In this document: in pieces, positions 2,062-28,022 of the stretch
Layout: the number at the start of each line of letters is the position of its first letter
How positions within the stretch are numbered: position 1 is the stretch's first letter
The notes under the pieces: model-generated
What the model was told of the DNA's origin: nothing
What the model saw: the letters and a program-made list of their open reading frames with translations, nothing else
Databases searched by the model: none
Made by a program: the position numbers and the translations under genes
NCBI GenBank assembly: GCA_963588175.1
Contig: CAVAGP010000004.1
Location: 9,339 to 73,338 of the forward strand
Source: Faecalibacillus sp.
GTDB taxonomy: Bacteria > Bacillota_I > Bacilli_A > RFN20 > CAG-826
Direction: 5' to 3'
DNA: 64,000 nucleotides

Positions 2062-3292
2062 AAACTAGATGTCCCTTTACTAAGTGATTAGTAAAGCAAA
2101 TTTTCTTAAACGCGGGAAACGCTTAAAGCTTGATATACTAAAGTAATAACGCCTCATTATTACAATGTTACGAAAGTAGAAACAAATATCAAGATGGTAT
2201 ATGGAGCAATCCTAAGTACTAAAAAGAGCCAATCCGCACCAATTAGGGAGGCACTATGAAAATAGTAACAATAGAAGAAATAACTAATAGAATAGAAGAA
2301 AAGTTCCCAAATGAACCTTTCGAAATTGTTGAATATACTAGAGTTTCTAAGTCTTTTGCTATTAGATGCTTAAAATGTGGAAATACCTATCATTATTCTT
2401 CTTTTAATAATTATTTTAATGCCAAAAGAAAAGGGATATGTCCTTGTTATAATTCAAAAAATAATATCACTAAACATAAGAATACTTTAGAACAAATTCA
2501 AAAAAGGGTTCAAAATAATCCAGAAATTGAATTTATAGAATATTGGCATAATTCTGATACTCAAAAAAATATGGTCTGTGTCAAGTGTTTAAAGTGCGAA
2601 CAAATTTATAGCAAACCTCTTAGTGAATTTTTGAAGAATGACAAATGCCCTTTTTGTATAGGACGAGAGTCATTGAATACTCAAGCAGTAAAAGCTCTAT
2701 TACCGGCTGAATATGAGCTGTTAGATGAGTATAAGTCTACCAATCAAAAAGTTCATGTTAGGCATAAATGCGGTTTTATATGGGCTGTTAAAGTTAAAAC
2801 TTTATATAACTCAGTAGGATGCCCACACTGCAATAAAAAAGAGAGCAAAGGAGAACAAAAAATCACGCAATGGCTATTAAATAATGGTTATGATTTTTAT
2901 ACTGAATACTCCTTTAAATGGCAATCTAATGTTAGGAGACGATACGATTTTTATATTCCAGATTTTAACTTAATTATTGAATATATGGGCGAACAGCACT
3001 ATCATAAAAATTCATATTTTAAACTTCCGTTAGAAGAGCAGCAAAAGATAGATAAAGAAAAAGAATTAGAAGCTGAGCAGCAACACATGAATTATTTAAT
3101 TATTGGTTATTTTGATTATTCTAATATTGATACAATCTTAACTAATTGGTTCAACGACTATCCTGAAAAGGAGTAGACTCAAGCGAGTCGAAATAGAAAA
3201 CATCTTTTTAAGATGATGATATAGTCTTATCTATGTGGAAACATATAGCCGCGAAAGCGCGTATAACTTAGCGAGTTATACGGAAAATAATG
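2062..3292 (+). mobile_element. group I intron 1 (in terL), carrying a homing-endonuclease ORF between Q and R (P6 region)
   Basis: Core elements: P-like AAACGCGGGAAAC 2108-2120, Q AATCCGCACC 2231-2240, R GTTCAACGACTA 3149-3160, S GATGATATAGTC 3215-3226. Three 3' hairpins follow, then ...AAAATAATG with a terminal G at 3292. Removal rejoins terL in frame. Confidence 0.85.
2256..3176 (+). CDS. intron-encoded putative homing endonuclease: repeated zinc ribbons plus a C-terminal Vsr/DUF559-like PD-(D/E)xK nuclease domain
   Basis: RBS GGGAGG lies upstream of ATG2256. Several CxxC...CxxC pairs are present. The C-terminus reads RRYDFYIPDFNLIIEYMGEQHY, the (Y/F)DF...IE(Y/F)xGxQH pattern of Vsr/DUF559-type nucleases. 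The ORF is very AT-rich relative to the flanks, and its 3' end overlaps the R element. Confidence 0.6.
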   Translation: MKIVTIEEITNRIEEKFPNEPFEIVEYTRVSKSFAIRCLKCGNTYHYSSFNNYFNAKRKGICPCYNSKNNITKHKNTLEQIQKRVQNNPEIEFIEYWHNSDTQKNMVCVKCLKCEQIYSKPLSEFLKNDKCPFCIGRESLNTQAVKALLPAEYELLDEYKSTNQKVHVRHKCGFIWAVKVKTLYNSVGCPHCNKKESKGEQKITQWLLNNGYDFYTEYSFKWQSNVRRRYDFYIPDFNLIIEYMGEQHYHKNSYFKLPLEEQQKIDKEKELEAEQQHMNYLIIGYFDYSNIDTILTNWFNDYPEKE

Positions 3293-4030: not shown

Positions 4031-5553
4031 TGATGGAAGAAAGCAAAGATATTGCACAAGAAAAGAAAGTAATTACAGAAGCTACTAATCCGGCCGCCGG
4101 CGGTCCTGCCACCTTCAAGAAGATGACAGACAGCATGATCGGTGTTAGCGAAACTGCATATCAGAAGTATGCGCACTATTTGCGGCGGTCTGATGTAAGA
4201 GAATATTCTAAGCAAGATGTAGCCAACATCATTAACTATGGCACAGTTGAAGCTCAAAGAAAATTATCTCAGGACTATTTCTTTAGCAATGGTTTATACA
4301 GATCTCTCGTATTATATTACGCCACCCTGCTTAAATATACCGGCATTCTAATTCCTAATCCAAAGTTAGGCCACAATCTCTCCGAAAAAAAGATTGCTAA
4401 GCGTTATTTTGAAGCAGAAGACGTTCTCAATAAAATGAATCTGCCACAGGTCTTCCCTGACATTGCAGTTAGAGTATTTAGAGATGGTGCATATTATGGT
4501 GCAATCCGCACTTTAGATAAAGATAATTTTTCCTACGTAGATTTGCCGACCAACTATTGTATTTCTCGATACAAAGATTCAAAAGGCAACTACATTGTCG
4601 AATTTAATTTGGCTTTCTTTGACCATATTAGCAATGGAGAAGAGCGCGCAAACGCTTTTCGTGGCTATCCGAAACTCTTTAAGCGTGCTTATGATAAGTG
4701 GAAAAAGAAGGACGGCGCGCAATGGATATTCCTTCCTACAGATATTGGCTTCTGTTTTAACGTTTTCGAAGACGCGAGACCTATGCTTTTGAGCGTTATC
4801 CCTACTACTATTGATTATGACGACGCAGTAGAAACAGAGCAAGAACGCGATGCAGAAGAAATAAAGAAGATTATCGTTCAGAAAGTTCCTCACATCGCCA
4901 CAACAGGTGAATTAGTATTTGAGCCGGATGAGGCAGAAGAAATGCACCGTGGCGCAGTAAAGATGATGGATGCCAATCCTAATGTTAGCGTTCTTACTAC
5001 TTATGCCGATGTAGACTCCATTGTTTCTAAAACTGCGAATGATTCGTCAACTAACATCCTTGAAGTTATGCTAGAGGCCGTTTACAGCGACAGTTCCGTA
5101 AGTGGCCAATTACTTGGCTATCAGACGGGCGCGCAGTTAGAAAAAGCGATCAACACAAATATCGCGACAGTTATGTTACTGGCGCGCAAGTTTGCGAGAT
5201 TTGCTGAAAATGTGATAAACCGCATATATAGTAGTAGCAATCTTTCTTTTAGTTATGAGATACTTCCAATCTCATACCAAAACGATGATGATTATCTTAC
5301 CAAGGCTCTTCAAATGGCGAATAGTGGCTATTCGTTCTTGCTGCCGGCAGCGGCGATGGATCTTTCTCCTCGCAACTTGCGCGACATCAAAGATCTTGAA
5401 AACACGCTTCTCGAACTAACCGATAAGTTGATTCCGCTCCAGACCTCTTATACCCAGTCGGGCGCTGAGAGCAATGGAGAAGTCGGCGCACCTAAAAAAG
5501 ATGTCGACGATAAAGCCGAAAAAACTATTCAAAATGAAGAATCGCAAGGATGA
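4030..5553 (+). CDS. portal protein (position and size based)
   Basis: A 507-aa ORF overlaps the terL stop and has an RBS (AGGAGG). This is the canonical position between terminase and scaffold/capsid. Confidence 0.6.
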   Translation: MMEESKDIAQEKKVITEATNPAAGGPATFKKMTDSMIGVSETAYQKYAHYLRRSDVREYSKQDVANIINYGTVEAQRKLSQDYFFSNGLYRSLVLYYATLLKYTGILIPNPKLGHNLSEKKIAKRYFEAEDVLNKMNLPQVFPDIAVRVFRDGAYYGAIRTLDKDNFSYVDLPTNYCISRYKDSKGNYIVEFNLAFFDHISNGEERANAFRGYPKLFKRAYDKWKKKDGAQWIFLPTDIGFCFNVFEDARPMLLSVIPTTIDYDDAVETEQERDAEEIKKIIVQKVPHIATTGELVFEPDEAEEMHRGAVKMMDANPNVSVLTTYADVDSIVSKTANDSSTNILEVMLEAVYSDSSVSGQLLGYQTGAQLEKAINTNIATVMLLARKFARFAENVINRIYSSSNLSFSYEILPISYQNDDDYLTKALQMANSGYSFLLPAAAMDLSPRNLRDIKDLENTLLELTDKLIPLQTSYTQSGAESNGEVGAPKKDVDDKAEKTIQNEESQG

Positions 5554-13789: not shown

Positions 13790-15017
13790 TTAAGTAGATA
13801 CGGTATAGAAATGCCGCGATAGGAAGAAATTCCTATTGATAATCTCGTGAATTGCTGGGAACTCCTAAAGCTAATCAAACTACAACATAAGAAGTAATTC
13901 TAAGTGTGATAGTTTAAAAATTGATTAGATGGTAAATAAGAGGTTTTAAAATGGACAATCAGCAGCTAAGCATCAATTCTGAAATTTATTATTGTAAACC
14001 TAAACTCGGATATGGATTTATTTATAGATACACTTCTCCTTCTGGTAAAGAGTATATAGGCCAGACATCCGGAACGCTGAAGAAAAGAGCTAAAAATCTC
14101 ATCTCTGGAGATGGATATAAGAAATGTTCTCTTTTTTGGAAGGCAATACGGAAATATGGTTTTTTAAACTTGAAAGTGGAAATACTAGAAGAGGTTCCTC
14201 TTAGTGAGTTAAATAAGAAGGAAGAGTTTTATATTCAAAAATTTGATACACTCGCCCCAAAAGGCTATAACTTAACGGGAGGAGGGGAAGGGGGAAAAAA
14301 GAAAGACGTCTATGTCTATTCTGCGCAAACAGGATGTTTTCTTGAACATTATTCTAGTTTAACAGAGGCTTCTTTGTTCACAGAAGTTCCTGTTGAAACG
14401 ATTAGCGTAATAATGAATCAGAATCATCGAAAGCAATCTCATAATCTAATATTTCTTGACAATTACTTGGAAAGTTATGATATTTCTAAATTAGCGAAAA
14501 AGAATTTTACTAGAGTTTATGTTTATGATAAGGAAGGGTTTTATCTTAATTACTATGATAAGATTACCGAAGCGGCGAAAAATTTAAAGATTAGTGACAG
14601 TTCAATTTGGAACGTTCTAACCGGAAGATCTCTCCATGCAGCTTCTTATCAGTTTAGTAGGGAAAAAGTAGATAAAATGCCACCTCTTCCTCGGAATAGC
14701 CGTTCTCCAATTTCTGTCTGTCAGATTGACCCAAAATCAGGAGAAGAGATTCAGAAGTTCCCTTCCCTCAGTGAAGCTGCGCGAGCGGTCGGAATAGTTA
14801 ATGGAAATAATATCAAAAGAGTGGCCACATCTGGAAAAGGGACAAGTGGAGGGTATTTTTGGAGAATTGATGAAAGTTCAACGACTAAGAGCGGACAAAA
14901 CCCCAGTCCGACTGTGCGAGACTCCCATTAAGGGATGAAGATATAGTCTAATCTTATGTGAAAATATAAGCAGCGCCTAAAAAGCGCGGGCAATTTGGGA
15001 AATTGCCGAATATAATG
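13790..15017 (+). mobile_element. group I intron 2 (tail-tube gene) with a GIY-YIG homing-endonuclease ORF in the P6 region
   Basis: Core elements: P GAATTGCTGGGAACTCC 13849-13865, Q AATCAGCAGC 13957-13966, R GTTCAACGACTAAG 14876-14889, S GATGAAGATATAGTC 14934-14948. Three hairpins follow, then ...AATATAATG ending at G15017. Confidence 0.85.
13951..14931 (+). CDS. GIY-YIG homing endonuclease (I-TevI-like), intron-encoded
   Basis: The N-terminus GYGFIYRYTSPSGKEYIGQT...R...H... plus YNLTGGGEG is the GIY-YIG module. Repeated C-terminal helix-turn-helix-like modules (SLTEA..., ITEAAKNLKISDSSIWNVL, SLSEAARAVGI...) are present. The start overlaps Q and the 3' end overlaps R. Confidence 0.85.
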   Translation: MDNQQLSINSEIYYCKPKLGYGFIYRYTSPSGKEYIGQTSGTLKKRAKNLISGDGYKKCSLFWKAIRKYGFLNLKVEILEEVPLSELNKKEEFYIQKFDTLAPKGYNLTGGGEGGKKKDVYVYSAQTGCFLEHYSSLTEASLFTEVPVETISVIMNQNHRKQSHNLIFLDNYLESYDISKLAKKNFTRVYVYDKEGFYLNYYDKITEAAKNLKISDSSIWNVLTGRSLHAASYQFSREKVDKMPPLPRNSRSPISVCQIDPKSGEEIQKFPSLSEAARAVGIVNGNNIKRVATSGKGTSGGYFWRIDESSTTKSGQNPSPTVRDSH

Positions 15018-15542
15018 ATTAAAGAAGTTGCAGATGTATCCTTCTATCAGATTAACGAAGACGGGTCTATGGGCGCTCCGGTGCTTTACTTGGACTCTCT
15101 TAAAGTATCCACCATTGAACAGACGGCTGAAAATACCTCTGCAAAAGGTGGTAAAGGTAATGTTGACCTCGTTATGTGGGACTATGGTCGTGAAATTACC
15201 GTAACTCTTGAAGATGCTCTGTTCTCTGCCAAGTCTATGGCATTGATGTTTGGCTCTCTGTTCGATCAGGAAGACAAACAGGGTACAAAATCCCTTGCTT
15301 CCGCTACTTCTATTTATAGAACTGTTCCGAAGGTTGACTTTGAATCTGTTCTGGGTACCGAAGGCAAGGCTGTTGTAAATGGTTCTACATTTACTGTAAC
15401 TGATACTAAGTATTACGACGAAAACGGCGACACTGCTGAAAAGGCTTCCGCCGCTTATGCTGTAGTTGCTATGACTGTAGATGGTGTAGAAATTGCTATT
15501 TCTTCCGATACATTCCCGGGCACCTACACAATTATCGGAGAT
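15018..15542 (+). CDS. major tail (tube) protein, exon 2
   Basis: Frame continuity with exon 1 gives MNI|IKEVADVSFYQ.... No RBS precedes this segment. The exon ends at GGAGAU 15537-15542, which pairs perfectly with GUCUCC 15556-15561. The ORF tail KPRNCLLAA-stop is intron sequence. Confidence 0.7.
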
Positions 15543-16466
15543 AAACCGCGTAATTGTCTCCTCGCTGCGTGAGTAGCGATAAATAAAATTGGTGAATTGC
15601 GGGAACCCTAAACCACAAGGCATGGGAATCCGCAGCTAAAGGAGAAAAATGGTAGACGTTTATCGTTGTCCAAAGAAAGGGTATGGATATATCTATAAGT
15701 ACACGAGCCCTTCTGGAAAAAGTTATATTGGACAAACGACCACTTCCCTCGTTTTGAGGAGTGGTAAAAGAGGGAAAAAATATCTCGGATGTAAGGCATT
15801 TTATAATGCCATAAAGAAATATGGCTTTGAAAATTTTACGGTCGAAATTTTAGGCGAGTATAAAATTAACGCGTTAGATACAAAAGAAAAGTATTTCATT
15901 CATCGGTATAATACTTTGTTGCCATATGGCTACAATGTAAAGGATGGAGGACAAAATACTTCCCGATGCGCGCGACCAATTTACGCCTATAACTTAGATG
16001 GAACATTTTATAAGAAATATTTTAATCAAGCCGAGGCAAGAAAAGAATTTGGAATTGATGGGTCCGATATCAGTAAGTGCGCCGATGGAAAACTACATTT
16101 CGTTAGAGGAAAAATTTGGCGAAGAGAGTATTCGAGTAGCGTGGAACCTGTTTCTACGGGGAAGAATGGTGCAAAGCCTGTTCTTCAAATCGACCCAAAA
16201 ACAAATCAAATTTTGAACGTTTACGATTCGGCCAGTTCTGCCGCCCGCGCTTTGGGTATTTCTAGACCTACTGGAATATCGAAGTGCTGTTTGGGTAAAC
16301 AAAATATAAGTGCAGGATATAAGTGGCAATTTCTTCAAAGTTCAACGACTAAAGACCTCTAGAATCTCTGAGGGTAGTGCCAATCTCTTCCACGATATTG
16401 GAAGATGAAGAGATAGTCTAATCTTTATAGAAATATAAAGAAGTTTGAGAAACGGTAATAGAAATG
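15543..16466 (+). mobile_element. group I intron 3 (tail-tube gene) with a GIY-YIG homing-endonuclease ORF
   Basis: Core elements: P GAATTGCGGGAACCC 15594-15608, Q AATCCGCAGC 15627-15636, R GTTCAACGACTAA 16340-16352, S GATGAAGAGATAGTC 16404-16418. The intron ends ...ATAGAAATG at G16466. Confidence 0.85.
15649..16362 (+). CDS. GIY-YIG homing endonuclease, intron-encoded (paralog of 13951-14931)
   Basis: GYGYIYKYTSPSGKSYIGQT and YNVKDGGQ motifs are present, with C-terminal HTH-like modules (SASSAARALGISRPTGISKC). RBS AAAGGAG lies upstream. The 3' end overlaps R. Confidence 0.85.
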   Translation: MVDVYRCPKKGYGYIYKYTSPSGKSYIGQTTTSLVLRSGKRGKKYLGCKAFYNAIKKYGFENFTVEILGEYKINALDTKEKYFIHRYNTLLPYGYNVKDGGQNTSRCARPIYAYNLDGTFYKKYFNQAEARKEFGIDGSDISKCADGKLHFVRGKIWRREYSSSVEPVSTGKNGAKPVLQIDPKTNQILNVYDSASSAARALGISRPTGISKCCLGKQNISAGYKWQFLQSSTTKDL

Positions 16467-16503
16467 ACTTACGCAAGATCTGAAACAACTGGTAAAGATG
16501 AGT
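16467..16503 (+). CDS. major tail (tube) protein, exon 3 (37-nt micro-exon, TYARSETTGKDE + 1 nt)
   Basis: This is the only open frame between introns 3 and 4. GAGU at 16500-16503 pairs with guide AGCUC at 16515-19, with the U-G pair at the junction. Phase 1 is completed exactly by the two leading T residues of exon 4. Confidence 0.6.
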
Positions 16504-16823
16504 TAACTTGGAATAGCTCACTCGCAGCGTAAGCTGCCCGATTAAACATGATTAATTGCTGGAAACTCCTAAAGCTAATTAGACTACAACGGAGTTAATT
16601 GTAACAAACGTGAATGTTTTAAAAACTAATTAGATGTAATAATGGACAATCAGCAGCCGAGCAATTGAAAGATTGTGGGTCCAACGACTAGCGAAAGCGT
16701 AGGGACGAAGCGTCTCGAAAAATCATGCCCCCTTTTTAAGGGGTGAAGATATAGTCTAATCTCATATGAAAGTATGAGCAGTTATAAACGGCATAGAAGT
16801 AGCGCTCTATGTGAATATTAATG
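16504..16823 (+). mobile_element. group I intron 4 (tail-tube gene), ORF-less
   Basis: Core elements: P TAATTGCTGGAAACTCC 16553-16569, Q AATCAGCAGC 16648-16657, R GTCCAACGACTAG 16679-16691, S GGTGAAGATATAGTC 16742-16756. The intron ends ...ATTAATG at G16823. Only an 8-codon ORF remnant (MDNQQPSN-stop) lies where intron 2 has its GIY-YIG gene. Confidence 0.8.
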
Positions 16824-17900: not shown

Positions 17901-19358
17901 ATGAAACAGTCAGCCACCATCAATCTATCGGTAAAAGCAGATTTGCAAGATGCTGAAAGTCGATTTAAACAGTTGAAGACGTTGGTTAATTCTATCCAGT
18001 TGCCGAACAATAGTAAGTCTACTATGACAACAGAATTAAATAATATCTTGCGGAAGGTCGAAGAATTAAAAGAGCTATCTGCTAATCCGTTAGATGAGAA
18101 TGGATACAAGCAAGCGATAAAGCTACAACAGCAAATAGAAACCAGCATGACTAAGCTCGGCAGAAGCATAAATTCTGTCAGCAACGCATCGAAAGATAAA
18201 CTTAAAAATTTAATTCCTAAATCGAATATAGATACAGTAAAAAAATTAGATACTGTATTGAACCAGATTACGCAAGATACAAAAGATCAAAGAACAGAAG
18301 CTAACAAAGTAGCTGCGGCTCTCGAAAAACAGAAGACCGCTTATGATGAGGTTTGTGAGAAGCAGAAAAAATTAAATAATTACACTAAAGAACAAGTTGA
18401 AGATGCTAACAATGCGTCCTTACAAAGTAGTTTAAGAAGTAAACAAAGTTCGGCAAAGCGGACAAAGGATAAAGCTGAAAAAACGAGAGATACTGCTGCT
18501 GAGCGCATGAAAGAGATAGAAAAAGCAGTTGGAGGTAATAAAAACCGTTACTCTCATCGAAAAGATTATCAGACTGAAAAGGATATCCGCGATGCTGCAG
18601 CAAAGGAATATAAAGAAGCTGAAAAAATATATAATGAGACTCATGCGAAGTTAGAAGAAGGCCGAACTATAATCAAACTTCAAGATGCAACAGTTGATTT
18701 TAGTACAGTAGAACAATCTTATCAGGCCGCAGTGGATAGGATGAACTCTATTTCACAAGATTTAGACTTCACACCCTATAAAGAAGCGTTGAAAGATCTC
18801 GACGTAGATATCAATGTAGATTCGATTAATTCTGTCGAAGATCTCCAAGACGCAATAAAAAAGTTAAGCGAAGAAGATTTAGATAAAACACTCCAAGCTC
18901 TTCCTGAATTGCAGGCAGCGTTTGCCAACTGTGAGACTCCAATATCAAATACGAGCGACGAATTGAGGGAAGCCAGTCAAGTATTGGACAACTTCAATCA
19001 GAAGAATGCCGAATTAGCCAATTTGAAGAATCGGATGTTAGATTTCTTTGGCATTTCTAACTCAATTCAACTGTTTAAAACCGCCGTGCGCGACGCTTAC
19101 CAAGCAATTTCTGAACTAGATGCAGAAATGACCGAAATGGCTGTTGTTACAGATTATTCGGTTAGCGACTTGTGGGATCAGTTACCATACTACACTCAGC
19201 AAGCGAACGAACTAGGAGTGGCGACAAAAGAAGCCTATGCCGCGGCCACTCTGTACTATCAGCAAGGCTTAGACACTAACCAAGTAAACTCTTTAACGAC
19301 ATCGACCTTGAAGATGGCACGTATCGCCAGTCTCGATGCCGCGACTGCAACAGACCGT
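17901..19358 (+). CDS. tail tape measure protein, exon 1
   Basis: ATG17901 follows AAAAGGAG. The sequence is long, coiled-coil-like and K/E/Q-rich, and runs into the TP901-type TMP core (...TLKMARIASLDAATATDR). CCGU at 19355-58 pairs with GCGG at 19374-77. The ORF tail EQKSYAA-stop is intron sequence. Confidence 0.75.
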
Positions 19359-20374
19359 GAACAGAAAAGTTATGCGGCTTAACGAAGCAATTCGTTAATG
19401 AAAACCCATTAAATTGCTGGAAACTCCTTAGAGCTTTATGCACAATAGTAACATAAAAAGTTATGGATGGATGTCCTGTAAAAGACATAAAGATTGGACA
19501 ATCAGCAGCCAAGTAATCGAAAGATTAAAGGTTCAACGACCAAAAGTAAAGAGAAGTCTCTTGAAAAAGTGGGCATCTTTAAAAGATGAAGATATGGTCT
19601 GAACTTTATAGAAATATAAAGGAGTGAGTAAAATATGAATCAATCAAAAAACTATCAAAAAGCTCTTCTAATATGCGAAGAAAATAAGGAATTTTTAATT
19701 TTAGATTATATAAGAGGAAAAAGCCCCAAAGTTAAATTAAAATGTCATAAATGTGGATATGAGTTTGAAAGATATTTATGTCATTTTATTCAATATCCTC
19801 ATGTTTGTCCAAAATGCTGCCCAAAAGGAAAACGACAAACAATCTCCCTTGATCAAGCACAAAAGCGAATCGATGAAATTTATGGAGAGAATTATTTAAA
19901 AATTTTAGAATATAAGGGGAACAACACAAAAACTCAGATTCAATGTCTTCACTGCGGATTAATTTTTGAGAGTGTACCATCCTCCGTTTGGAGGGGGAGG
20001 ATCAAGGGATGTCCTTCTTGTGAAAAGACTCGGAGTTTAGGGGAAGCCAGGTTGGAGAGATTCTTCAGGGAGCATCATATACAATATCAGACTCAAAAGA
20101 GATTCTTAGACTGCAAAGATGAATTAATGTTACCCTTCGATTTTTTCTTACCTCAATACAACACCTGCGTTGAGTTTCAAGGGGAACAACATTATAATTC
20201 TAAAAGTCTTCTATATTCAGAAAAATTACTTTATCACGATTCTTTAAAGAGAGAATACTGTAACTTGAACGGTATTTCTCTTATTGAAATTCCTTATTTT
20301 GATATTAATAAGATTGAAAATTATTTTACGTTCATTCGAGAATAATTAACGACTATTCTCTAACGCCCCTGATG
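19359..20374 (+). mobile_element. group I intron 5 (tape measure) with its homing-endonuclease ORF downstream of the S element (P9 region)
   Basis: Core elements: P AAATTGCTGGAAACTCC 19411-19427, Q AATCAGCAGC 19500-19509, R GTTCAACGACC 19531-19541, S GATGAAGATATGGTC 19585-19599. The ORF follows S. The intron ends ...CCCCTGATG, with the terminal G at 20374 or alternatively 20371. Confidence 0.8.
19635..20345 (+). CDS. intron-encoded putative homing endonuclease: zinc ribbons plus a Vsr/DUF559-like PD-(D/E)xK domain (same family as 2256-3176)
   Basis: RBS AAAGGAG lies upstream. CHKCG...CPKCC and CLHCG...CPSC ribbons are present. The C-terminus reads LPFDFFLPQYNTCVEFQGEQHY. Confidence 0.6.
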   Translation: MNQSKNYQKALLICEENKEFLILDYIRGKSPKVKLKCHKCGYEFERYLCHFIQYPHVCPKCCPKGKRQTISLDQAQKRIDEIYGENYLKILEYKGNNTKTQIQCLHCGLIFESVPSSVWRGRIKGCPSCEKTRSLGEARLERFFREHHIQYQTQKRFLDCKDELMLPFDFFLPQYNTCVEFQGEQHYNSKSLLYSEKLLYHDSLKREYCNLNGISLIEIPYFDINKIENYFTFIRE

Positions 20375-20842
20375 ACAAATGCTCTTCGTGGTTTCAACAT
20401 GGAGTTGAACGAAACGAACGGGCAAAGAATTGCAGACGTTTACTCGGAATTGGCCGCCGTATCGGCCACAGACGTAGACGAATTGTCTACGGCAATGACA
20501 AAAGTTGCTTCGTTGGCAAGTAGTGCTAACATGACTTTCGAGAACACTTCGGCTTTCTTGTCGCAGATTTTGGAAGTAACCCGAGAGGCGCCTGAAACAG
20601 CAGGTACCAGTTTAAAGACAATCATCGCCAGAGCCACGGAAGTAAAAAAACTCTATTCTAAAGGTGAACTTACTGGCTCGGACGAAGAAGGCGAAGCAAT
20701 TGACGTCAACGATGTTTCTGCCGCATTGCGGTCAGCAGGCATCGACTTAAACAAGTTTTTGGTTGGCGACGTCGGCTTAGATGAAATTTTTAATGAGTTG
20801 GCATCTAAGTGGGATACATTGGACGTCGTACAGCAGAGATAT
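20375..20842 (+). CDS. tail tape measure protein, exon 2 (TP901-type core)
   Basis: The sequence TNALRGFNMELNETNGQRIADVYSELAAVSATDVDELSTAMTKVASLASSANMTFENTSAFLSQILEVTREAPETAGTSLKTIIAR is the conserved TMP core pattern. The exon ends at AGAUAU 20837-42, which pairs perfectly with GUAUCU 20852-57. Confidence 0.8.
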
Positions 20843-21983
20843 TAAATGCTAGTATCTATAACCTATCTAATTGCGGGAAAATCCTGAGAGCTTTTATTAC
20901 TAAACGGCAGCAGCAATGGTGTCGTGGCGAGAGTAATGACCTCGGCATAGTAAAAAGATAAAAGATTGGATAATCCGCAGCTAAGACACGTAATCTTTAT
21001 TATTGACAATACGTCAAAGGAGATAAATATGAAAAAACAAATACAGTTAAATGGAGAATCAACTTCTTTTTGGGTATATGATAATGGAATGCTACAGAGA
21101 GAGGATACTGGTCACTGGTATAAGCCTTTTGATAATGGAGGTTATCTCAGTTATTATTTAAAGTGGAAAGGAAAAACTTATCCTTTTAGAGTGCACAGAT
21201 TACTGGCAATATACTTTATTCCGAATCCAGACAATAAACCTTTTGTACGTCATAAAGACCATGATCACTACAACAACAACCTCAATAATTTAGAGTGGGT
21301 AACAGTGAAAGAAAATAATCAAGATCGGTTGAAGCCTGCTCATCCTCCAGTCGCCCCTAAAAATTATGATTATGCAAATGAGCACTGGAAACAATATCTC
21401 GATACAGAGTTCTATGTTAGTGACCTCGGTAGAGTAAAGAATATCAGGACGAGAAATTATTTAAGAGGTAATGTACGGGAAAATGGGTATTTAAGAGTAG
21501 GACTAAGATATAATGGGAAAATTCATTCCTTTAATGTTCACAATCTCGTATGGCAAGTTTGGAGAGGACCGCAGAAGAATGTAATAGATCATATTAATGG
21601 AGATAAGCTAGATAATCGACTTTCCAATCTCCAAGATATAACTCAATCTGAGAATCTTCAAAAGGCAAGCCGAAAGGCTATGCCAATTGGTAATAGCGTA
21701 GAGAAGAACGGCCCAATAGTTAAAGTCTATACTTCTCAGGCGGCCGCTGCTCGCGCGTACAATATTAATTCGGGCAATATTAATCATGCTCTTCATGGAG
21801 GATATCGAGCAGCAGGTTATTATTGGCGCTTTTTGACAGAAGAAGATTACGTGTAAAGTTCAACGACTATCCTATAGCAGATAATGCTAGGAGTAGAAAC
21901 AATGCGTTTCGAAATGGTAGGGCTGCTATTTAGTTAGCAGATGATATAGTCTACCTTTTAAAGAAATTTAAAAGAATTTTGTG
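20843..21983 (+). mobile_element. group I intron 6 (tape measure) with an HNH homing-endonuclease ORF in the P6 region
   Basis: Core elements: P TAATTGCGGGAAAATCC 20868-20884, Q AATCCGCAGC 20972-20981, R GTTCAACGACTAT 21858-21870, S GATGATATAGTC 21940-21951. A P9 hairpin follows, then ...TTTTGTG ending at G21983. Confidence 0.85.
21029..21856 (+). CDS. HNH homing endonuclease (NUMOD4-like N-terminus, two HNH-type modules, C-terminal HTH), intron-encoded
   Basis: ATG21029 follows AAAGGAG. Motifs: VHRLLAIYFIPNPDNKPFVRHKDHDHYNNNLNNLEWVTVKENN, a second module HNLVWQVW...IDHINGDKLDNRLSNLQDITQSEN, and C-terminal SQAAAARAYNINSGNINHAL...GYYWRF. Confidence 0.85.
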   Translation: MKKQIQLNGESTSFWVYDNGMLQREDTGHWYKPFDNGGYLSYYLKWKGKTYPFRVHRLLAIYFIPNPDNKPFVRHKDHDHYNNNLNNLEWVTVKENNQDRLKPAHPPVAPKNYDYANEHWKQYLDTEFYVSDLGRVKNIRTRNYLRGNVRENGYLRVGLRYNGKIHSFNVHNLVWQVWRGPQKNVIDHINGDKLDNRLSNLQDITQSENLQKASRKAMPIGNSVEKNGPIVKVYTSQAAAARAYNINSGNINHALHGGYRAAGYYWRFLTEEDYV

Positions 21984-24900
21984 ATAGCAACTCAGATAGC
22001 TGGCAGTAGGCAGCAATCGAGATTTATTGCTCTTATGGGCGACTACGATCGACTTCTTGAATTGGAAGCCGACGCAATGAATGCTAATGGTGCGGCTGAT
22101 GATCAGTACGCAAAAACGTTAGATTCTCTAGAAACTAAACTGAATAAATTAAAGAACGCATATAATGAATTTATTATGGGTCTTGCCAATAATAAAGCTA
22201 TTAAACTTGTAATTACTGGCTTGACTGGAATTTTAAATCTTGTTAATAAAATTACTACCCTTTTTGGATTAGTAGATTCGAGTAACATTATTTCTTTCTT
22301 GCTGAAAGCAGGAGCACTGATCGCCTCTCTGGTCGGCGCTTCAAAAGGCTTGAATAAGCTATTCAGCATTAAAAAAGCTGAAACTTTTTCAAAAGCTATT
22401 TCTGCCGCGTTAAGTGGAAAAGACGTTCGATCAGAGATGAAAGAACGAATTAGCCTTGTTGAATCGCTAAATCAGGCAGCAGACAAGTTAAACCAAAAAA
22501 CTGAAAAGTTAACTGAAATCAAGAAGAAAGGTTTAAAAGAATATAAGAAAGAACAGAAAGCTGCTCAGGCGGCTGCTCAGCAAGTGGCAGAAGACGGAAC
22601 CGAAAAAACGACGGAACTGTCGGGCGCAAGGCAGGCAGCAGAGACTCGTCAAGCGAGTGCAGAAGCTCTAAAGAATACAGAAATTGAGGGCGCAAAAGAG
22701 GCTGCCGCAATTCGTATGCAAGGAGCAAAAGCAGAAGGCGAACAAGAAAAAAGCGATGCTGGCGAAGAAGCTGCGATCGAGAGCACGAGCGCCAAAGCAG
22801 AAGGTCTTCAAGAAAAAGAAGATGCGATAGATGAAAGTGCGATCGAACTGGCAGGCGCAAAAGCAGAAGGTCTGCAAGAAAAAGAAGATGCGGCCGAAGA
22901 AGCTGCAATCGAAAACGCAGGAACTGCGGTCGAAGGCCTTCAAGAAAAGGCCGGAGGATTGACCGGTGCTTTTAAAAATCTGGGAAAGAGTGCTAGTGGA
23001 ATGGCAGAAGCCTTGGGAGTCTCCTTGGGTACTCTGGGTGCAATCGCAGGGGTAGTTGCCGGTATCGCAATTGCGGTCGGCGTTTGTGTCCATCTTTGGA
23101 ATACCTTTAATGCAGACGCCAAGTTAGATCAAGCAACAGAAGCCACAGAACGAGCAAAGACTGCCGCAGACAATGCGGCCGATGCTTACGACAATCTTCT
23201 CAGTGCGAGAGATGAATATGATGATATTGTTAGTTCTCTTGATTCTCTAACCGAAGGGACAGAAGAGTGGGAGCAGAAGATACTCGAAGCCAACACACAA
23301 ATTATTGAATTACTTAATAATTATAAGCAACTCTATCGATATATGAGCGTTGGTGATAATGGCCTTATCTCTGTCGACGAAGAAGGTTGGGAAACCGTCA
23401 TTGAAGATCAAAAAGATTTGGTAGAAAAAACTCAGGCAGCTTATCTTATTGCCAGAGGACGGGAATCTGCGGCGACTAACGACACGCTGACCGCCGCACG
23501 GAAGACTAATTCCACAGATAACCAGCAAAAATGGGAAGATAGCATAAACGACATCTTCCACAATGAAGGTTGGGTGGGTGCTGTTGGTAGTCGGGAAATC
23601 TACAGATTCTCTCAAGCGGCTGAAGACGCAATTCGACAAGGAACGGATTTTGATATTGAAGACTGGGCAGAGAAAAATGTTTCTGAGTTCTCTTATATTT
23701 CTGATCGAGGTCAAAAAGAAGTTATCGCACAATTTGCACAGCTTCAAGGAGAACTCAAATCCAATTTCATTTCTGAAACTAATTCTATCCAATCGGCTAT
23801 TCTTGCTTCTATAGATCAAGATGTTTCTAATAGTGGTTATGCAAATGCTATCTCCTCATCTCTTGTAAACTCTGCCGAATATGAGGAAATGTATCAAGAC
23901 GCATATGACGAATATCATAACCACACAAGAGAGACCCTCCTTGGAATGTACAAGGAAAAGACTGGACTACAAACTGACCAAGAAGTTGCGGACCTACTGG
24001 GAATTGACGTAGATAAGCTCGGAGATGTAACTCGAAAGGAATGGAGGGACTACCTGGCACAGTTAGACTTAGCAAGTGATCTGACTGATAAAGTTAATGA
24101 AGTCTATGATAGCGTGACAGGGAGCGATTCTGAAAAAGTTATCGAGGCCATCAAGGATAAAACCAATCTCACAGATGAAGCTTTATTAGAGAGAATTCAA
24201 AGTGTAGATAGTAACATTACTAGTCTAGAGGATGTTTCTCTCGAATATTGGGAACAACTCTGGGGCGACTTGGGCTTTGATCAAACGGTTTTGGACGAAA
24301 TGACTTCTGAGTCCGACTTATTCTTGAAGTCCATGGACCAAGAGAGTGCGCGATTAACGAAGAATGAAATAGAAGCTGTCGACAAATACACCGACGAGCA
24401 GATTGAAGCTCTCTCTGAAGCCTATGATATTTCAATAGAAGAAGTAAAATCTCGTCTAGAGAAACAGCAAAATCTTTCTACCAATTCTTTTAAAAAAGCA
24501 AATGAAACGGCATCCAATACGACCAGCTATATTGCCGCCAATTTCGAAGCGGACACTGGCAATATGTCTGCCGAAGCAGCAAAACAATTAGCTGATGATT
24601 GCGACACCATTATGGACCAAATGGGTGAAGATGCGGCCGACGCTTTCTATAAAGAAGTTATCGAAACAAGCAACCAAATAGCTGAACAATTTGGAGCAAA
24701 TTCTGAGCAGTACGAACAATTTTTGTCTACTCTGACTACGTTAGATGTCTCTAATAGTCAAGAACAACTAAAGACACTCCAGACGGGATTCCAAAATGTA
24801 TTCAATCAGGTTGCAGAGGGATTCTCCTTTGAGGATATACAAGACACCGATGAATACACTGCTCTTCTGTCGGTATTGAAGAATTTCCCTGCCACTTATA

Positions 24901-27900
24901 GTGATGCATCGAATGCGGCAGAAGAATTCAAAAATATCTTGTCGAGCGGAGACTTCGGCGTTGCTGAACAGCTCAACTATATTACTCAATTCCAAGACCA
25001 GTTATCTAATGATGTAATTGGCAACTCTCTCGACGATGCCGTAGTCGCGGCGCGTGCACTTAACAGCGAACTTCCATTTGATTTTCTCGGTGACGTTAGA
25101 CTAGAAGAAATTACCGACCAATTAGTATCTGACGTTGACACCATTGTCTCTAGAGCCGAAATGCTCCAAGAAGCTTTTGATGGCATCAATGATGATCTCA
25201 CTATCGATGCTTCGGATGTAGAAAGGTTGACTGAACTCTTTCCTGAATTAGTGGCGCAGGCTCAAGTATTAGAGGACGGCACACTACAATTGAACGAATC
25301 TATGATAGATTCGACTTTGGAAGCCTACGGAATTGAGCTCGATGCCGATGCTGAAACAAAAGATGCGCAAATAGAAAACCAAATTACCCTTCTCGAAGCG
25401 GAACAAGATGCTTTACAGAATGGATTAGACGCATTTATTGAGTCCTGTAGCACCGAAGTTGACATTGATGGAGCAGTAAAAGAAGCAGAAGCTCAATTGG
25501 CCGAAGCAGAAGAGGGTACTGAGCAAGACTTAGATAATCAGACTACTTCCAACGCAGGAGACAACTATCAAAACCTCGTAGCAGATAGCTATGCGGCCTA
25601 TGCCGCAATGGCAGCTAATGCTGCTGACTCCTCGAAGAGCACTATTAGCTCTTTGCTAGCTGTTATAAAGACTGCATTCTCTATGTGGAGAAGCATTCGA
25701 ACAGGAGAAGGTGGCGAAACTTATGATGCGTCAGCCACATTCTCTGGGCAGACCATCTCCTCTAAAGCTAAAGAAGCAGTCAATAAAGTAAATGCCGCGC
25801 GCGCCGCCAGCTCTAATCCTAAAATATCAGAGCTTAGCGCCGAACAGCAGGCGAAAATCAACAACATTGCGGGACGTTACTATGAGCAGATGGCTTCTAA
25901 AACAAAACAAATTGCAGAATTGAAGTCCGCGCAGAGCAAGCTCCGAAGTAGCGTAGACGAGTCAAGAGGAACTAAAGATGATAGTGATTCTAGTTCTTCT
26001 GGTTCTGATGAGACAGATGACGTTGAATCCTTTGAGAATGAGCTTGATAAGCTCTATAATCTAGTTGCCGACCTCGAAGAGCTTGAAAGACAGCGGAATG
26101 AGCTTGAACAAGAATATGAGCGTATTATTGACCGTGAAAATACCACGGGTGCGGCAGTCCTTAAAGTTCGTGAAAAAGAGCTTCTTAACTTAAAGAAGCA
26201 AGAGGCGTATCAAAAAGCTATACTGGCCGGTCGCGAGAAAGAGATGGAAACCTATCTCAAACAGAATAGTGACCTTGCGCAGTATGCCACCTATAACTGG
26301 GATGATATGTCTGTCGAGATTGATTATGACAAAATTAATGCCTTAGTCGAGAGCGGCGATAATGAAACATACGAAAGACTTGAGGACTATATTAGTGAGC
26401 TTGAAACTATCGAAGGTAATATTGAAGATGCACAAGACAGCATCGATGATATCGGAGATGAAATTGACGATCTCTTTGACGAGCAGAAAGAAGCCTATAT
26501 CGATCTCGAAGACAAAATTTATGATGCTATCGTACAGATGCGACAAGACGAAATTGACGCGATGTCTGACCTCAGCAATTCTATTGATGACGCGAACGAT
26601 AAACTTATTAATTCTATTCAGTCTAGCGTAGACCAACTTCGGCAAGATCGAGAGAACGAAGAAACCGAACAGGATATTGCCGATATGGAGCAACGTTTGG
26701 CCTATCTGCAAATGGACACTTCTGGCGGCAATCAGCAAGAGATTCTTTCTCTCCAAGAAGAAATCGACGACAAGCGGCAAGATTATACCGATAGTCTTAT
26801 CGACCAAAAGATAAATGAGCTTGAAGAGCAAAATGATAAAGCATCGGAAGAACGGCAAGCTCAAATTGACCTTATGCAAGCTCAACTCGACTACGATGAA
26901 AAGAATGGTGTTTTTTGGACAAAAGCTCATAAAATCATGGAAGAAGCATATGATGAAGAAGGAAAACTCCTCGAGACTTCTGAGCTCGTAGAGCTCCTTC
27001 AATCAACAGACGGTTATAAAGGATTGTCTGAAACCAGTAAAATGGAATGGATGAACGAACTGGAAGATTCCGCAGCCAAAGCATGGGCTTGGATGGAGAG
27101 CGGCACAGTTATTTCGGCAGTAGAGAAGCAAACTGCTAGTTTGACGAGCTCTTTGACTAGCTTGGGAGAGACACTTGGCGCGAAGATAGCTAGTGTAGGA
27201 TACTACATTAGCAGTTCTAACTCATCCAGTAGTTCTGGTTCTAGCTCATCTAGTGGCTCTAGCTCTGGCTCGACCGCAACCTACGGAAGTACAAAAGTTA
27301 GCTCTAACTCTTCTGGTAGCAGTAACTCCTCTGGTGGCAACAATTCTTCCAAGACAACCTCGAGCACGAGTAACTATCGATATCCAACGGGATGGAGAAA
27401 ACTACCGACAAAAAATCTATCAGGAACAGGATTAACATACGACACTGGCAGCACAAAAATAAAAGATAAAACCTTGGCCGCGTCAGGTATTATGACCAAC
27501 TCTTTTGGGAGTTCTTCTGCTAACCTTACTTATTATCGTATTTCTTCTCTAACAAAAACAGCCTCAAAAGGAGGAACTCGGAAAGTCAGTGCTACAGAAA
27601 AGGTTAAAAAATCTTACGCAACTAAAGATGGAGTAGTATACTTAAAACTTAGTGGGGGAAATTCAGACACCTGGGTCCGACAGGATAGCTTCTATAAGAA
27701 ATATAAAACCGGCGGTGTAGCCGATTTCACAGGGCTGGCCTGGTTAGACGGCACGAAGTCTAAACCTGAGATTGTTCTCAATCAGTCTGATTCTCAAAAC
27801 TTCCTTGCATTAAAGGATGTCCTCGCTGATGCGGTAAGGGGCGGCTTCGGTTCCTCTTCTAGTGCATCCGCAGAAACTTCCCAATATGCGATCGATGTAG

Positions 27901-28022
27901 ATATTAATGTGGATCAAATTGCAAATGATTATGATGTAGACCAAATGATAACAAAAGTCAAAAAAGAGATTGCAAAAGATATGAAATATCGCAATGTAAC
28001 TCAAGTTAGTCGTTTACGGTAA
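21984..28022 (+). CDS. tail tape measure protein, exon 3
   Basis: The join ...DVVQQRY|IATQIAGSRQQSRFIALMGDYDR continues the TMP core. The exon is 2012 aa and contains 22-aa tandem repeats, a hydrophobic segment (LGTLGAIAGVVAGIAIAVGVCVHLW), long acidic coiled-coil tracts and a poly-Ser tract. The spliced total is about 2654 aa. Confidence 0.85.
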   Translation: MATQIAGSRQQSRFIALMGDYDRLLELEADAMNANGAADDQYAKTLDSLETKLNKLKNAYNEFIMGLANNKAIKLVITGLTGILNLVNKITTLFGLVDSSNIISFLLKAGALIASLVGASKGLNKLFSIKKAETFSKAISAALSGKDVRSEMKERISLVESLNQAADKLNQKTEKLTEIKKKGLKEYKKEQKAAQAAAQQVAEDGTEKTTELSGARQAAETRQASAEALKNTEIEGAKEAAAIRMQGAKAEGEQEKSDAGEEAAIESTSAKAEGLQEKEDAIDESAIELAGAKAEGLQEKEDAAEEAAIENAGTAVEGLQEKAGGLTGAFKNLGKSASGMAEALGVSLGTLGAIAGVVAGIAIAVGVCVHLWNTFNADAKLDQATEATERAKTAADNAADAYDNLLSARDEYDDIVSSLDSLTEGTEEWEQKILEANTQIIELLNNYKQLYRYMSVGDNGLISVDEEGWETVIEDQKDLVEKTQAAYLIARGRESAATNDTLTAARKTNSTDNQQKWEDSINDIFHNEGWVGAVGSREIYRFSQAAEDAIRQGTDFDIEDWAEKNVSEFSYISDRGQKEVIAQFAQLQGELKSNFISETNSIQSAILASIDQDVSNSGYANAISSSLVNSAEYEEMYQDAYDEYHNHTRETLLGMYKEKTGLQTDQEVADLLGIDVDKLGDVTRKEWRDYLAQLDLASDLTDKVNEVYDSVTGSDSEKVIEAIKDKTNLTDEALLERIQSVDSNITSLEDVSLEYWEQLWGDLGFDQTVLDEMTSESDLFLKSMDQESARLTKNEIEAVDKYTDEQIEALSEAYDISIEEVKSRLEKQQNLSTNSFKKANETASNTTSYIAANFEADTGNMSAEAAKQLADDCDTIMDQMGEDAADAFYKEVIETSNQIAEQFGANSEQYEQFLSTLTTLDVSNSQEQLKTLQTGFQNVFNQVAEGFSFEDIQDTDEYTALLSVLKNFPATYSDASNAAEEFKNILSSGDFGVAEQLNYITQFQDQLSNDVIGNSLDDAVVAARALNSELPFDFLGDVRLEEITDQLVSDVDTIVSRAEMLQEAFDGINDDLTIDASDVERLTELFPELVAQAQVLEDGTLQLNESMIDSTLEAYGIELDADAETKDAQIENQITLLEAEQDALQNGLDAFIESCSTEVDIDGAVKEAEAQLAEAEEGTEQDLDNQTTSNAGDNYQNLVADSYAAYAAMAANAADSSKSTISSLLAVIKTAFSMWRSIRTGEGGETYDASATFSGQTISSKAKEAVNKVNAARAASSNPKISELSAEQQAKINNIAGRYYEQMASKTKQIAELKSAQSKLRSSVDESRGTKDDSDSSSSGSDETDDVESFENELDKLYNLVADLEELERQRNELEQEYERIIDRENTTGAAVLKVREKELLNLKKQEAYQKAILAGREKEMETYLKQNSDLAQYATYNWDDMSVEIDYDKINALVESGDNETYERLEDYISELETIEGNIEDAQDSIDDIGDEIDDLFDEQKEAYIDLEDKIYDAIVQMRQDEIDAMSDLSNSIDDANDKLINSIQSSVDQLRQDRENEETEQDIADMEQRLAYLQMDTSGGNQQEILSLQEEIDDKRQDYTDSLIDQKINELEEQNDKASEERQAQIDLMQAQLDYDEKNGVFWTKAHKIMEEAYDEEGKLLETSELVELLQSTDGYKGLSETSKMEWMNELEDSAAKAWAWMESGTVISAVEKQTASLTSSLTSLGETLGAKIASVGYYISSSNSSSSSGSSSSSGSSSGSTATYGSTKVSSNSSGSSNSSGGNNSSKTTSSTSNYRYPTGWRKLPTKNLSGTGLTYDTGSTKIKDKTLAASGIMTNSFGSSSANLTYYRISSLTKTASKGGTRKVSATEKVKKSYATKDGVVYLKLSGGNSDTWVRQDSFYKKYKTGGVADFTGLAWLDGTKSKPEIVLNQSDSQNFLALKDVLADAVRGGFGSSSSASAETSQYAIDVDINVDQIANDYDVDQMITKVKKEIAKDMKYRNVTQVSRLR
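22725..22949 (+). repeat. 66-nt (22-aa) tandem repeat, ~3.4 copies, inside the tape measure gene
   Basis: Units start at 22725, 22791, 22857 and (partial) 22923. They read AKAEG(E/L)QEK(S/E)DA..E.AIE... Confidence 0.85.

Follow-up and report, generated by a model that had tools for sequence, protein, structure and literature searches.

A group I intron in a phage tape-measure gene with a Vsr-like endonuclease gene in its P9.1 loop

Results

Group I introns of the window

The window analyzed here (G000:C4:9339-73338) is the whole 64-kb stretch of DNA and forms part of a phage-like contig of 92.9 kb with 39% GC. Near and distant DNA searches of a phage collection returned no relative of this phage, and no cultured phage shares more than 30% identity with its tape-measure core. 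The covariance model RF00028 matched the whole assembly 28 times, and seven group I introns (i1 to i7) lie within the window. The terL intron (i1; 2062-3292, plus strand) and two GIY-YIG introns of the tail-tube gene (i2, 13806-15017; i3, 15541-16466) carry an ORF between the Q and R motifs, in P6, as do two HNH introns, one in the tape-measure gene (i6; 20843-21983, plus strand) and one on the minus strand (i7; 53173-52166). A further tail-tube intron, i4 (16496-16800), has no ORF. Intron 5 (i5; 19359-20371, plus strand), in the tape-measure gene, carries a Vsr-like ORF after S, in the P9.1 loop.

By direct reading of the motif positions, P6 (Q to R) holds the ORF in all five other ORF-bearing introns of the window. 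These positions bear out the loop assignments of a preliminary description of this DNA. The remark in that description that the Q-to-R segments of introns 5 and 4 are nearly the same was also correct, with 38 of 46 positions matching and equal lengths. The “same chassis” that it proposed for these introns stands only in part. The seven introns have a structural class in common but not a near-identical backbone, as pairwise identity of the core segments across the seven is only 34 to 74%.

Continuity of the tape-measure gene across intron 5

Tape-measure exon 1 (17901-19358, plus strand), defined by direct reading and by collinear intron-less relatives, ends in ...ATATDR, and exon 2 (20372-20842, plus strand), with 157 codons, begins MTNALRGFN... 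and is followed by intron 6. We delimited the 1,013-nt group I intron between these exons with RF00028, intron-less relatives, and eight related loci. Across the junction, the intron-less relatives read ATDRMTNALRGF, which is ATDR-M-TNALRGF, a junction sequence also given as ATDR-M-TNALRGFNMELNE, and we therefore place the 3' splice site after G20371 (UG|AUGACA). The intron had previously been taken to extend to 20374, and the corrected 3' end is 3 nt upstream of that position. As in group I introns, the 5' splice site has a U.G pair, the last base is a G (G20371), and the exons would be joined in frame (ATDR|MTNALRGF), with the same reading as in the intron-less relatives. Before splicing, the match to PF10145 was partial (profile 61-191, 67.4 bits). 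After 19358 was joined to the downstream exon, it became one contiguous match (profile 2-201, 85.9 bits), and in the spliced tape-measure protein of 2,655 aa (window 17901-28022, with the corrected 3' splice site) a single PF10145 match spans both junctions.

For comparison of the tape-measure gene, 52 related IMG/VR loci were recovered, and in at least 40 of them the gene is uninterrupted at the intron 5 site, with up to 76% amino acid identity. The site coincides with the most conserved tape-measure codons (ATDR|MTNALRGF). The conserved core of the gene (~230 codons; window 19100-20842, loci L001-L060) is an intron hot spot. Relatives have at least seven insertion positions within these 230 codons (residues 44|45, 74|75, four codons past that, 102|103, ~155, ~163, and 230), and the ORFs of these introns are Vsr-like, HNH, or LAGLIDADG.

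Catalytic core of intron 5

RF00028 aligned with 19324-19621 over model positions 1-253, which is the full model, at 88.6 bits (gathering score, 50 bits), with the motifs at 19412 (P), 19500 (Q), 19533 (R), and 19591 (S). The core (19359-19621) is complete and without an ORF, in agreement with the earlier view of a compact P-to-S region. All of its elements are on the plus strand. P1 pairs CCGU (19355-19358) with GCGG (19374-19377), includes the U.G pair at the splice site, and covaries in relatives (CCGU/GCGG versus CUAU/GUAG). From P2 to P9 (19379-19621), the cmscan alignment yielded P2 (19379-19398), P3 (19405-19409 with 19569-19573), P4-P6 (19412-19532), the R/P7 5' strand (19533-19542), P8 (19574-19588), the S/P7 3' strand (19591-19599), and the P9 hairpin (19604-19621). 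The P7 pairing, read directly, joins GACCA (19538-19542) to UGGUC (19595-19599). Between P7 and P3' (19543-19568), the window copy has one P7.x hairpin, as does L006, and most intron 5 orthologues have both P7.1 and P7.2 at that place. The phage IA2-type subgroup has P7.1 and P7.2 between P7 and P3' and P9.1/P9.2 after P9; in the window copy, P9.1 and P9.2 are present and the P7.x hairpin is single.

We analyzed covariation in an alignment (A2) of nine distinct intron 5-type sequences from which the ORF had been removed. The 64 pairs in A2 are 97.7% paired, compared with 38 to 50% when partners were slid by 1 to 3 columns. Changes on both sides occur in 42 of the 64 pairs, and none of 500 shuffles reached the observed values. 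Covariation spans P2-P9 and P9.2 and includes the P3/P7 pseudoknot, with a P7 pair changed from C-G to U-A in three of the nine sequences.

The endonuclease ORF and its paralogue in the terL intron

The homing-endonuclease ORF of intron 5 (ORF5; 19635-20345, plus strand; 236 aa) starts 14 nt past P9, in the P9.1 loop. Its product has two zinc ribbons (DUF723/DUF4379) ahead of a Vsr-like PD-(D/E)xK domain at the C terminus. Pfam DUF723 (PF05265; cut-off, 20.9 bits) matched ORF5 with 22.6 bits and the ORF of the terL intron with 25.7 bits. The AF2 model of ORF5 had a pLDDT of 87.5, and its best Foldseek matches were the Vsr structures 1vsr/1cw0, with a probability of 1.0 and a weak E value of 0.016; the DUF559-like protein 3hrl was matched with a probability of 0.98. 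The invariant residues are D169, E180, and Q185; for H186, D202, and K205, conservation is 90% or higher. PDB sequence searches with ORF5 matched only zinc-ribbon proteins, a Pfam search found no NUMOD module in ORF5, and I-Bth0305I (3r3p) was absent from the top 50 Foldseek matches of the model. Because ORF5 has zinc ribbons and no NUMOD and because 3r3p fell outside the top 50, we would describe the modeled protein as Vsr-like but would not file it in the EDxHD family. To our knowledge, zinc-ribbon/Vsr-like endonucleases are biochemically uncharacterized so far.

The paralogous ORF of the terL intron (2256-3176, plus strand; 306 aa) lies inside P6, where by direct reading ACCAAUUAG (2238-2246) pairs with CUAAUUGGU (3142-3150) around the ORF on the same strand. 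The two ORFs are homologous (24% identity by BLASTP; E = 3e-15), so that one endonuclease family does occupy both loops, as proposed previously. The 3' end of the terL ORF is translated across the R element into ...FNDY....

The 3' domain of intron 5

A Shine-Dalgarno sequence, AAGGAG (19619-19624, plus strand), was found by direct reading to overlap the P9 3' strand. The P9.1 5' strand, GAGUGAGUAAAAUA (19622-19635, plus strand), runs into the AUG (19635-19637), of which it includes the A, and takes in a portion of the ribosome-binding site. This arrangement of Shine-Dalgarno sequence, P9, P9.1, and AUG is common to all relatives. The P9.1 3' strand, UAUUUUACGUUCAUUC (20322-20337, plus strand), lies within the last eight codons of ORF5, and RNAduplex gave pairing strengths of -12 to -17 kcal/mol. 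The equivalent strands are UAAAAUAUG with CAUAUUUUA in L004, UAAAUAUG with CAUAUUUA in L052, UUAAAAUG with CAUUUUAA in L178, GUUAAAAU with AUUUUAAC in L181, and AUAAGAUA with UAUCUUAU in L006 and L007, where an A-U pair has undergone a compensatory change to G-C. Among ~128 windows along the ORF, the last 45 nt were the best partner for the P9.1 5' strand in four of the nine sequences (L001, L004, L006, and L007) and ranked in the top 5% in the window sequence and in the top 8% in L180. In L052, L178, and L181, whose introns are shifted by 1 nt, the pairing was not distinguishable from the ~128-window background. The layout is that of the sunY type: P9.1 encloses the ORF, and P9.2 and then the 3' splice site come after it. 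P9.1 is well supported in six of the nine sequences.

P9.2 is a hairpin, GAGAAUA[AUUAACGAC]UAUUCUC (20338-20360, plus strand), that covaries among the nine sequences with changes on both sides at six of seven pairs. The stop codon of ORF5 (UAA, 20343-20345) is inside the P9.2 5' strand and loop. The 3' tail, UAAC-GCCCCUG (20361-20371, plus strand), ends in G20371, and its pattern (UAAC/GAAC, 5 to 8 nt, G|) is kept in the relatives and in ORF-less members of the class. In introns that lack an ORF but share the S/J7-9 signature, P9 is followed either by a short P9.1 hairpin or by nothing, and then by P9.2, whose loop is (A/U)UAACGA(A/C) as in intron 5, followed by (U)GAAC or UAAC, ~6 to 8 nt, and G|. 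In L071, the ORF-less intron most similar to the intron 5 core (69% over 251 nt), an identical P9 is directly followed by a P9.2-type hairpin. Since only a P9.1 hairpin or nothing precedes P9.2 in these ORF-less introns, the ORF of intron 5 occupies the exact place of P9.1. ORF5 lies in the P9.1 loop, and its ribosome-binding site and AUG belong to P9/P9.1. The previous placement in the “P9 region” was right in putting the ORF after S and is here made more precise.

We considered TTAACGACTAT (AACGAC), after the ORF stop codon, as a relic of the R element of a P6 donor and rejected this reading, as the sequence is the conserved loop of the covarying P9.2 and this loop occurs in many ORF-less introns of the class. 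A search for internal promoters gave only weak consensus matches, near chance level.

Relatives with the layout of intron 5

ORF5 has orthologues of ~236 aa with 45 to 67% identity, and an intron is present at the same tape-measure site in L001-L008, L052, L178/L179, L180, and L181. With near-identical contigs merged, these represent eight distinct related loci, or nine sequences with the window. All eight loci share one order: exon, complete core of ~275 to 295 nt, ribosome-binding site in the P9 3' strand, ORF, short tail, and exon. No ORF-less allele of intron 5 was found at its site among the 52 IMG/VR loci and the loci fetched via endonuclease orthologues.

As read from the sequences, the splice position in L052, L178, and L181 is 1 nt upstream of that in the other six introns, in codon phase 2 rather than 0, and the 5' splice site of L052 has C-G in place of U.G. 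In L004/L005, L057 (2981-3919), and L180, TAG must be read as glutamine; where the EFQGEQHY motif has its conserved Q residues, the endonuclease ORFs of these loci have in-frame TAG codons. These loci appear to belong to stop-codon-recoded phages.

Other positions of the endonuclease family

Members of the same endonuclease family occur elsewhere. L057 has a 313-aa member, intact only with TAG read as Q, between Q and R of an intron 12 nt downstream of the intron 5 site (AMTSA|LRGFN). In L004 and L178, a second tape-measure intron carries a member of P6 type, and that of L178 is about 25 nt upstream of the intron 5 site. In the terL introns of Kayvirus phiIPLA-RODI and the Harbinvirus Lactobacillus phage Iacchus, the family ORF is between R and S, probably in P8. 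Compared with the P6 forms, the P9.1 endonuclease is short of one zinc ribbon.

The P6-located ORFs run through R, with GUUCAACGACUAU translated as ...FNDY... or, in another frame, as ...STTIS... (window, 3142-3176; L057, 3870-3919; L004, about 4890-4917; L178, 2045-2080). This read-through is an example of “core creep,” and such a tail can mark a P6-located ORF.

A free-standing paralogue of ~125 to 143 aa lies outside the window on the minus strand of the same contig (C4, ~89320-89750), directly after a DNA-ligase-like gene and with no intron motifs nearby. Its homology to ORF5 is confined to the nuclease domain (32% identity), and zinc ribbons are absent. Another homologue of ORF5, on a contig with 33% GC (G000:C1:18959-19564; 27% identity), has three in-frame TGA codons, which mark it as a pseudogene or else point to a different genetic code.

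Phylogeny of the intron-ORF pairing

In a tree of 27 endonuclease sequences, the nine P9.1-located endonucleases formed one clade (100/99), in which the introns shifted by 1 nt are set apart (99/95) from all others (96/93). The FNDY-type P6 endonucleases also grouped together (93/94), and each ORF position sampled in several members (P9.1 and P6) has its own endonuclease clade. The core tree of the nine introns contained the same deep split (80/89) and the same pair of L006 and L007 (99/99), and the split by splice phase (L052, L178, and L181 versus the other six) is the deepest in both the endonuclease and core trees. A comparison of core and endonuclease phylogenies, as suggested in the preliminary description, showed agreement for the nine introns in this split and this pair. 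Branching in a cross-class core tree of ~170 columns was not resolved, and therefore deep incongruence with the endonuclease tree could not be shown.

From these sequence comparisons we conclude that the P9.1 arrangement had a single origin and is co-inherited with the core and the insertion site. The preliminary description had concluded that free endonuclease cassettes invaded resident introns independently, rather than being inherited with them. The second half of this conclusion does not hold for intron 5, given the single P9.1 clade and the matching splits of core tree and splice phase. The first half fits the presence of the family at several positions: because members were found in P6, between R and S, in P9.1, and free-standing, several separate ORF-intron associations are plausible. 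We detected no footprint of invasion of the Loizos type, in that the fused ORF flanks do not resemble the homing site (p 0.3-0.99, six lineages), and no ORF-less allele was present among the loci searched.

The pairing could also have been formed without the arrival of a free-standing cassette, either by a move of the ORF from P6 to P9.1 within an ancestral tape-measure or related intron or by recombination between two introns. Such a move would agree with P6 being the commonest position of the family, the L057 and L178 introns close to the intron 5 site included, and with the smaller number of zinc ribbons, by one, in the P9.1 endonuclease. It would also agree with the absence of DNA-binding ribbons from the one free-standing relative that this assembly yielded. 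However, the endonuclease tree gave no supported nesting of the P9.1 clade within the P6 clade, and the R-like AACGAC after the ORF is the class-wide P9.2 loop, present in ORF-less introns as well. We consider this origin unlikely. Far less probable still is an intron that ends just past P9 and is followed by a free-standing endonuclease gene splitting the tape-measure gene into separately translated pieces, for although an ATG is found exactly at 20372 and gene callers predict the tape-measure pieces separately, an end at G19621 would bring a stop codon (GAG UGA) directly past the junction, direct reading shows no ribosome-binding site ahead of 20372, the Pfam match is contiguous only once 19358 is spliced to 20372, intron-less relatives are collinear across the junction, and the P9.2 and tail after the ORF covary and agree with the 3' ends seen in introns that lack an ORF.

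Discussion

Our preferred explanation, to which we assign a probability of roughly 0.85, is that intron 5 is a mobile phage group I intron of IA type with an endonuclease gene in its P9.1 loop, the two having been joined once and co-inherited thereafter. The structure of the intron, its covariation, the continuity of the exons, the conservation of the layout, and the phylogeny of core and endonuclease were all observed. Splicing, cleavage, homing, and translational control are activities that we infer for intron 5. When P9 and P9.1 fold, the ribosome-binding site of ORF5 is probably masked, and the 3' splice site, ~750 nt away, is probably returned to the core. T4 intron endonucleases are a known case of ribosome-binding sites sequestered in hairpins (PMC2988022). 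The endonuclease most likely cuts intron-less tape-measure alleles and so would drive homing, and its family probably joined introns of this class at several positions, namely P6, probably P8, and P9.1.

A more speculative and rather doubtful idea is that the P9.1 helix acts as a switch by which translation of the endonuclease is coupled to the use of the remote 3' splice site. On reaching the end of ORF5, a ribosome would melt P9.1, and refolding of P9.1 would stop translation and dock the splice site. If this were true, the intron would have a built-in order for synthesis of the homing enzyme and maturation of the tape-measure mRNA.

Intron 5 represents a known pattern in a clean and conserved example, with one endonuclease family at P6, between R and S (probably P8), and at P9.1 of one intron class, and with each intron-ORF pair, once formed, inherited as a unit. 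Repeated invasion of ORF-less introns has been concluded before (PMC3073962) and is the current consensus according to Hausner et al., who also describe the sunY/I-TevII evidence (PMC3984707). Our suggestion of separate associations is already the consensus of the field, and intron 5 leaves current understanding unchanged. [quoted passage not shown] The zinc-ribbon/Vsr-like endonucleases could be new site-specific nucleases.

A close parallel in host gene is provided by TMP-IVS1/2/3, group I introns of tape-measure genes in prophages of the Bacillus cereus group (Tourasse & Kolsto 2008; PMC2504315). There, too, group I introns occupy several positions of a conserved tape-measure region, introns that resemble each other are found at separate sites, one site can hold unlike introns, and the endonuclease genes are regarded as independent invaders. 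In contrast, the phage with intron 5 belongs to another lineage, with tape-measure identity to cultured phages of 30% or less, the relatives of intron 5 have at least seven insertion positions within 230 codons, and the intron 5 endonuclease family is Vsr-like.

With respect to the endonuclease, I-Bth0305I is the prototype of the “EDxHD” Vsr-like homing endonucleases (PMC3239194). Like ORF5, it is intron encoded and has a C-terminal Vsr-like catalytic domain, whereas it has NUMOD/HTH N-terminal modules and a P5 location in place of the zinc ribbons (DUF723) and P9.1 location of ORF5. Kayvirus phiIPLA-RODI (KP027446, annotated “group I intron VSR homing endonuclease”) and Iacchus resemble intron 5 in endonuclease family (30 to 34% identity), in being intron borne, and in belonging to Firmicute phages. 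They differ in that the ORF is between R and S, probably in P8, rather than in P6 or P9.1.

In layout, intron 5 matches the T4 nrdD/sunY intron with I-TevII. The T4 sunY/I-TevII intron is a phage intron of IA type with an ORF-less core and a 3' splice site hundreds of nucleotides from the core, and the T4 td and nrdB introns carry ORFs in P6. Michel et al. (1990, 1992, Genes Dev) are said to have located the nrdD/sunY intron ORF after P9, and Loizos et al. (1994, PNAS) reportedly described the flanks of the sunY ORF as similar to the homing site. These papers are cited within PMC11417360 and PMC3984707. The two introns differ in host gene (nrdD versus the tape-measure gene here), in endonuclease (the GIY-YIG enzyme I-TevII versus the zinc-ribbon/Vsr-like ORF5), and in the similarity of ORF flanks to the homing site, which was reported for sunY and not found for intron 5. 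They are alike in their IA type, in an ORF-less core with the ORF downstream of P9, followed by P9.2 and a tail, and in having sister introns in the same genome with ORFs in P6.
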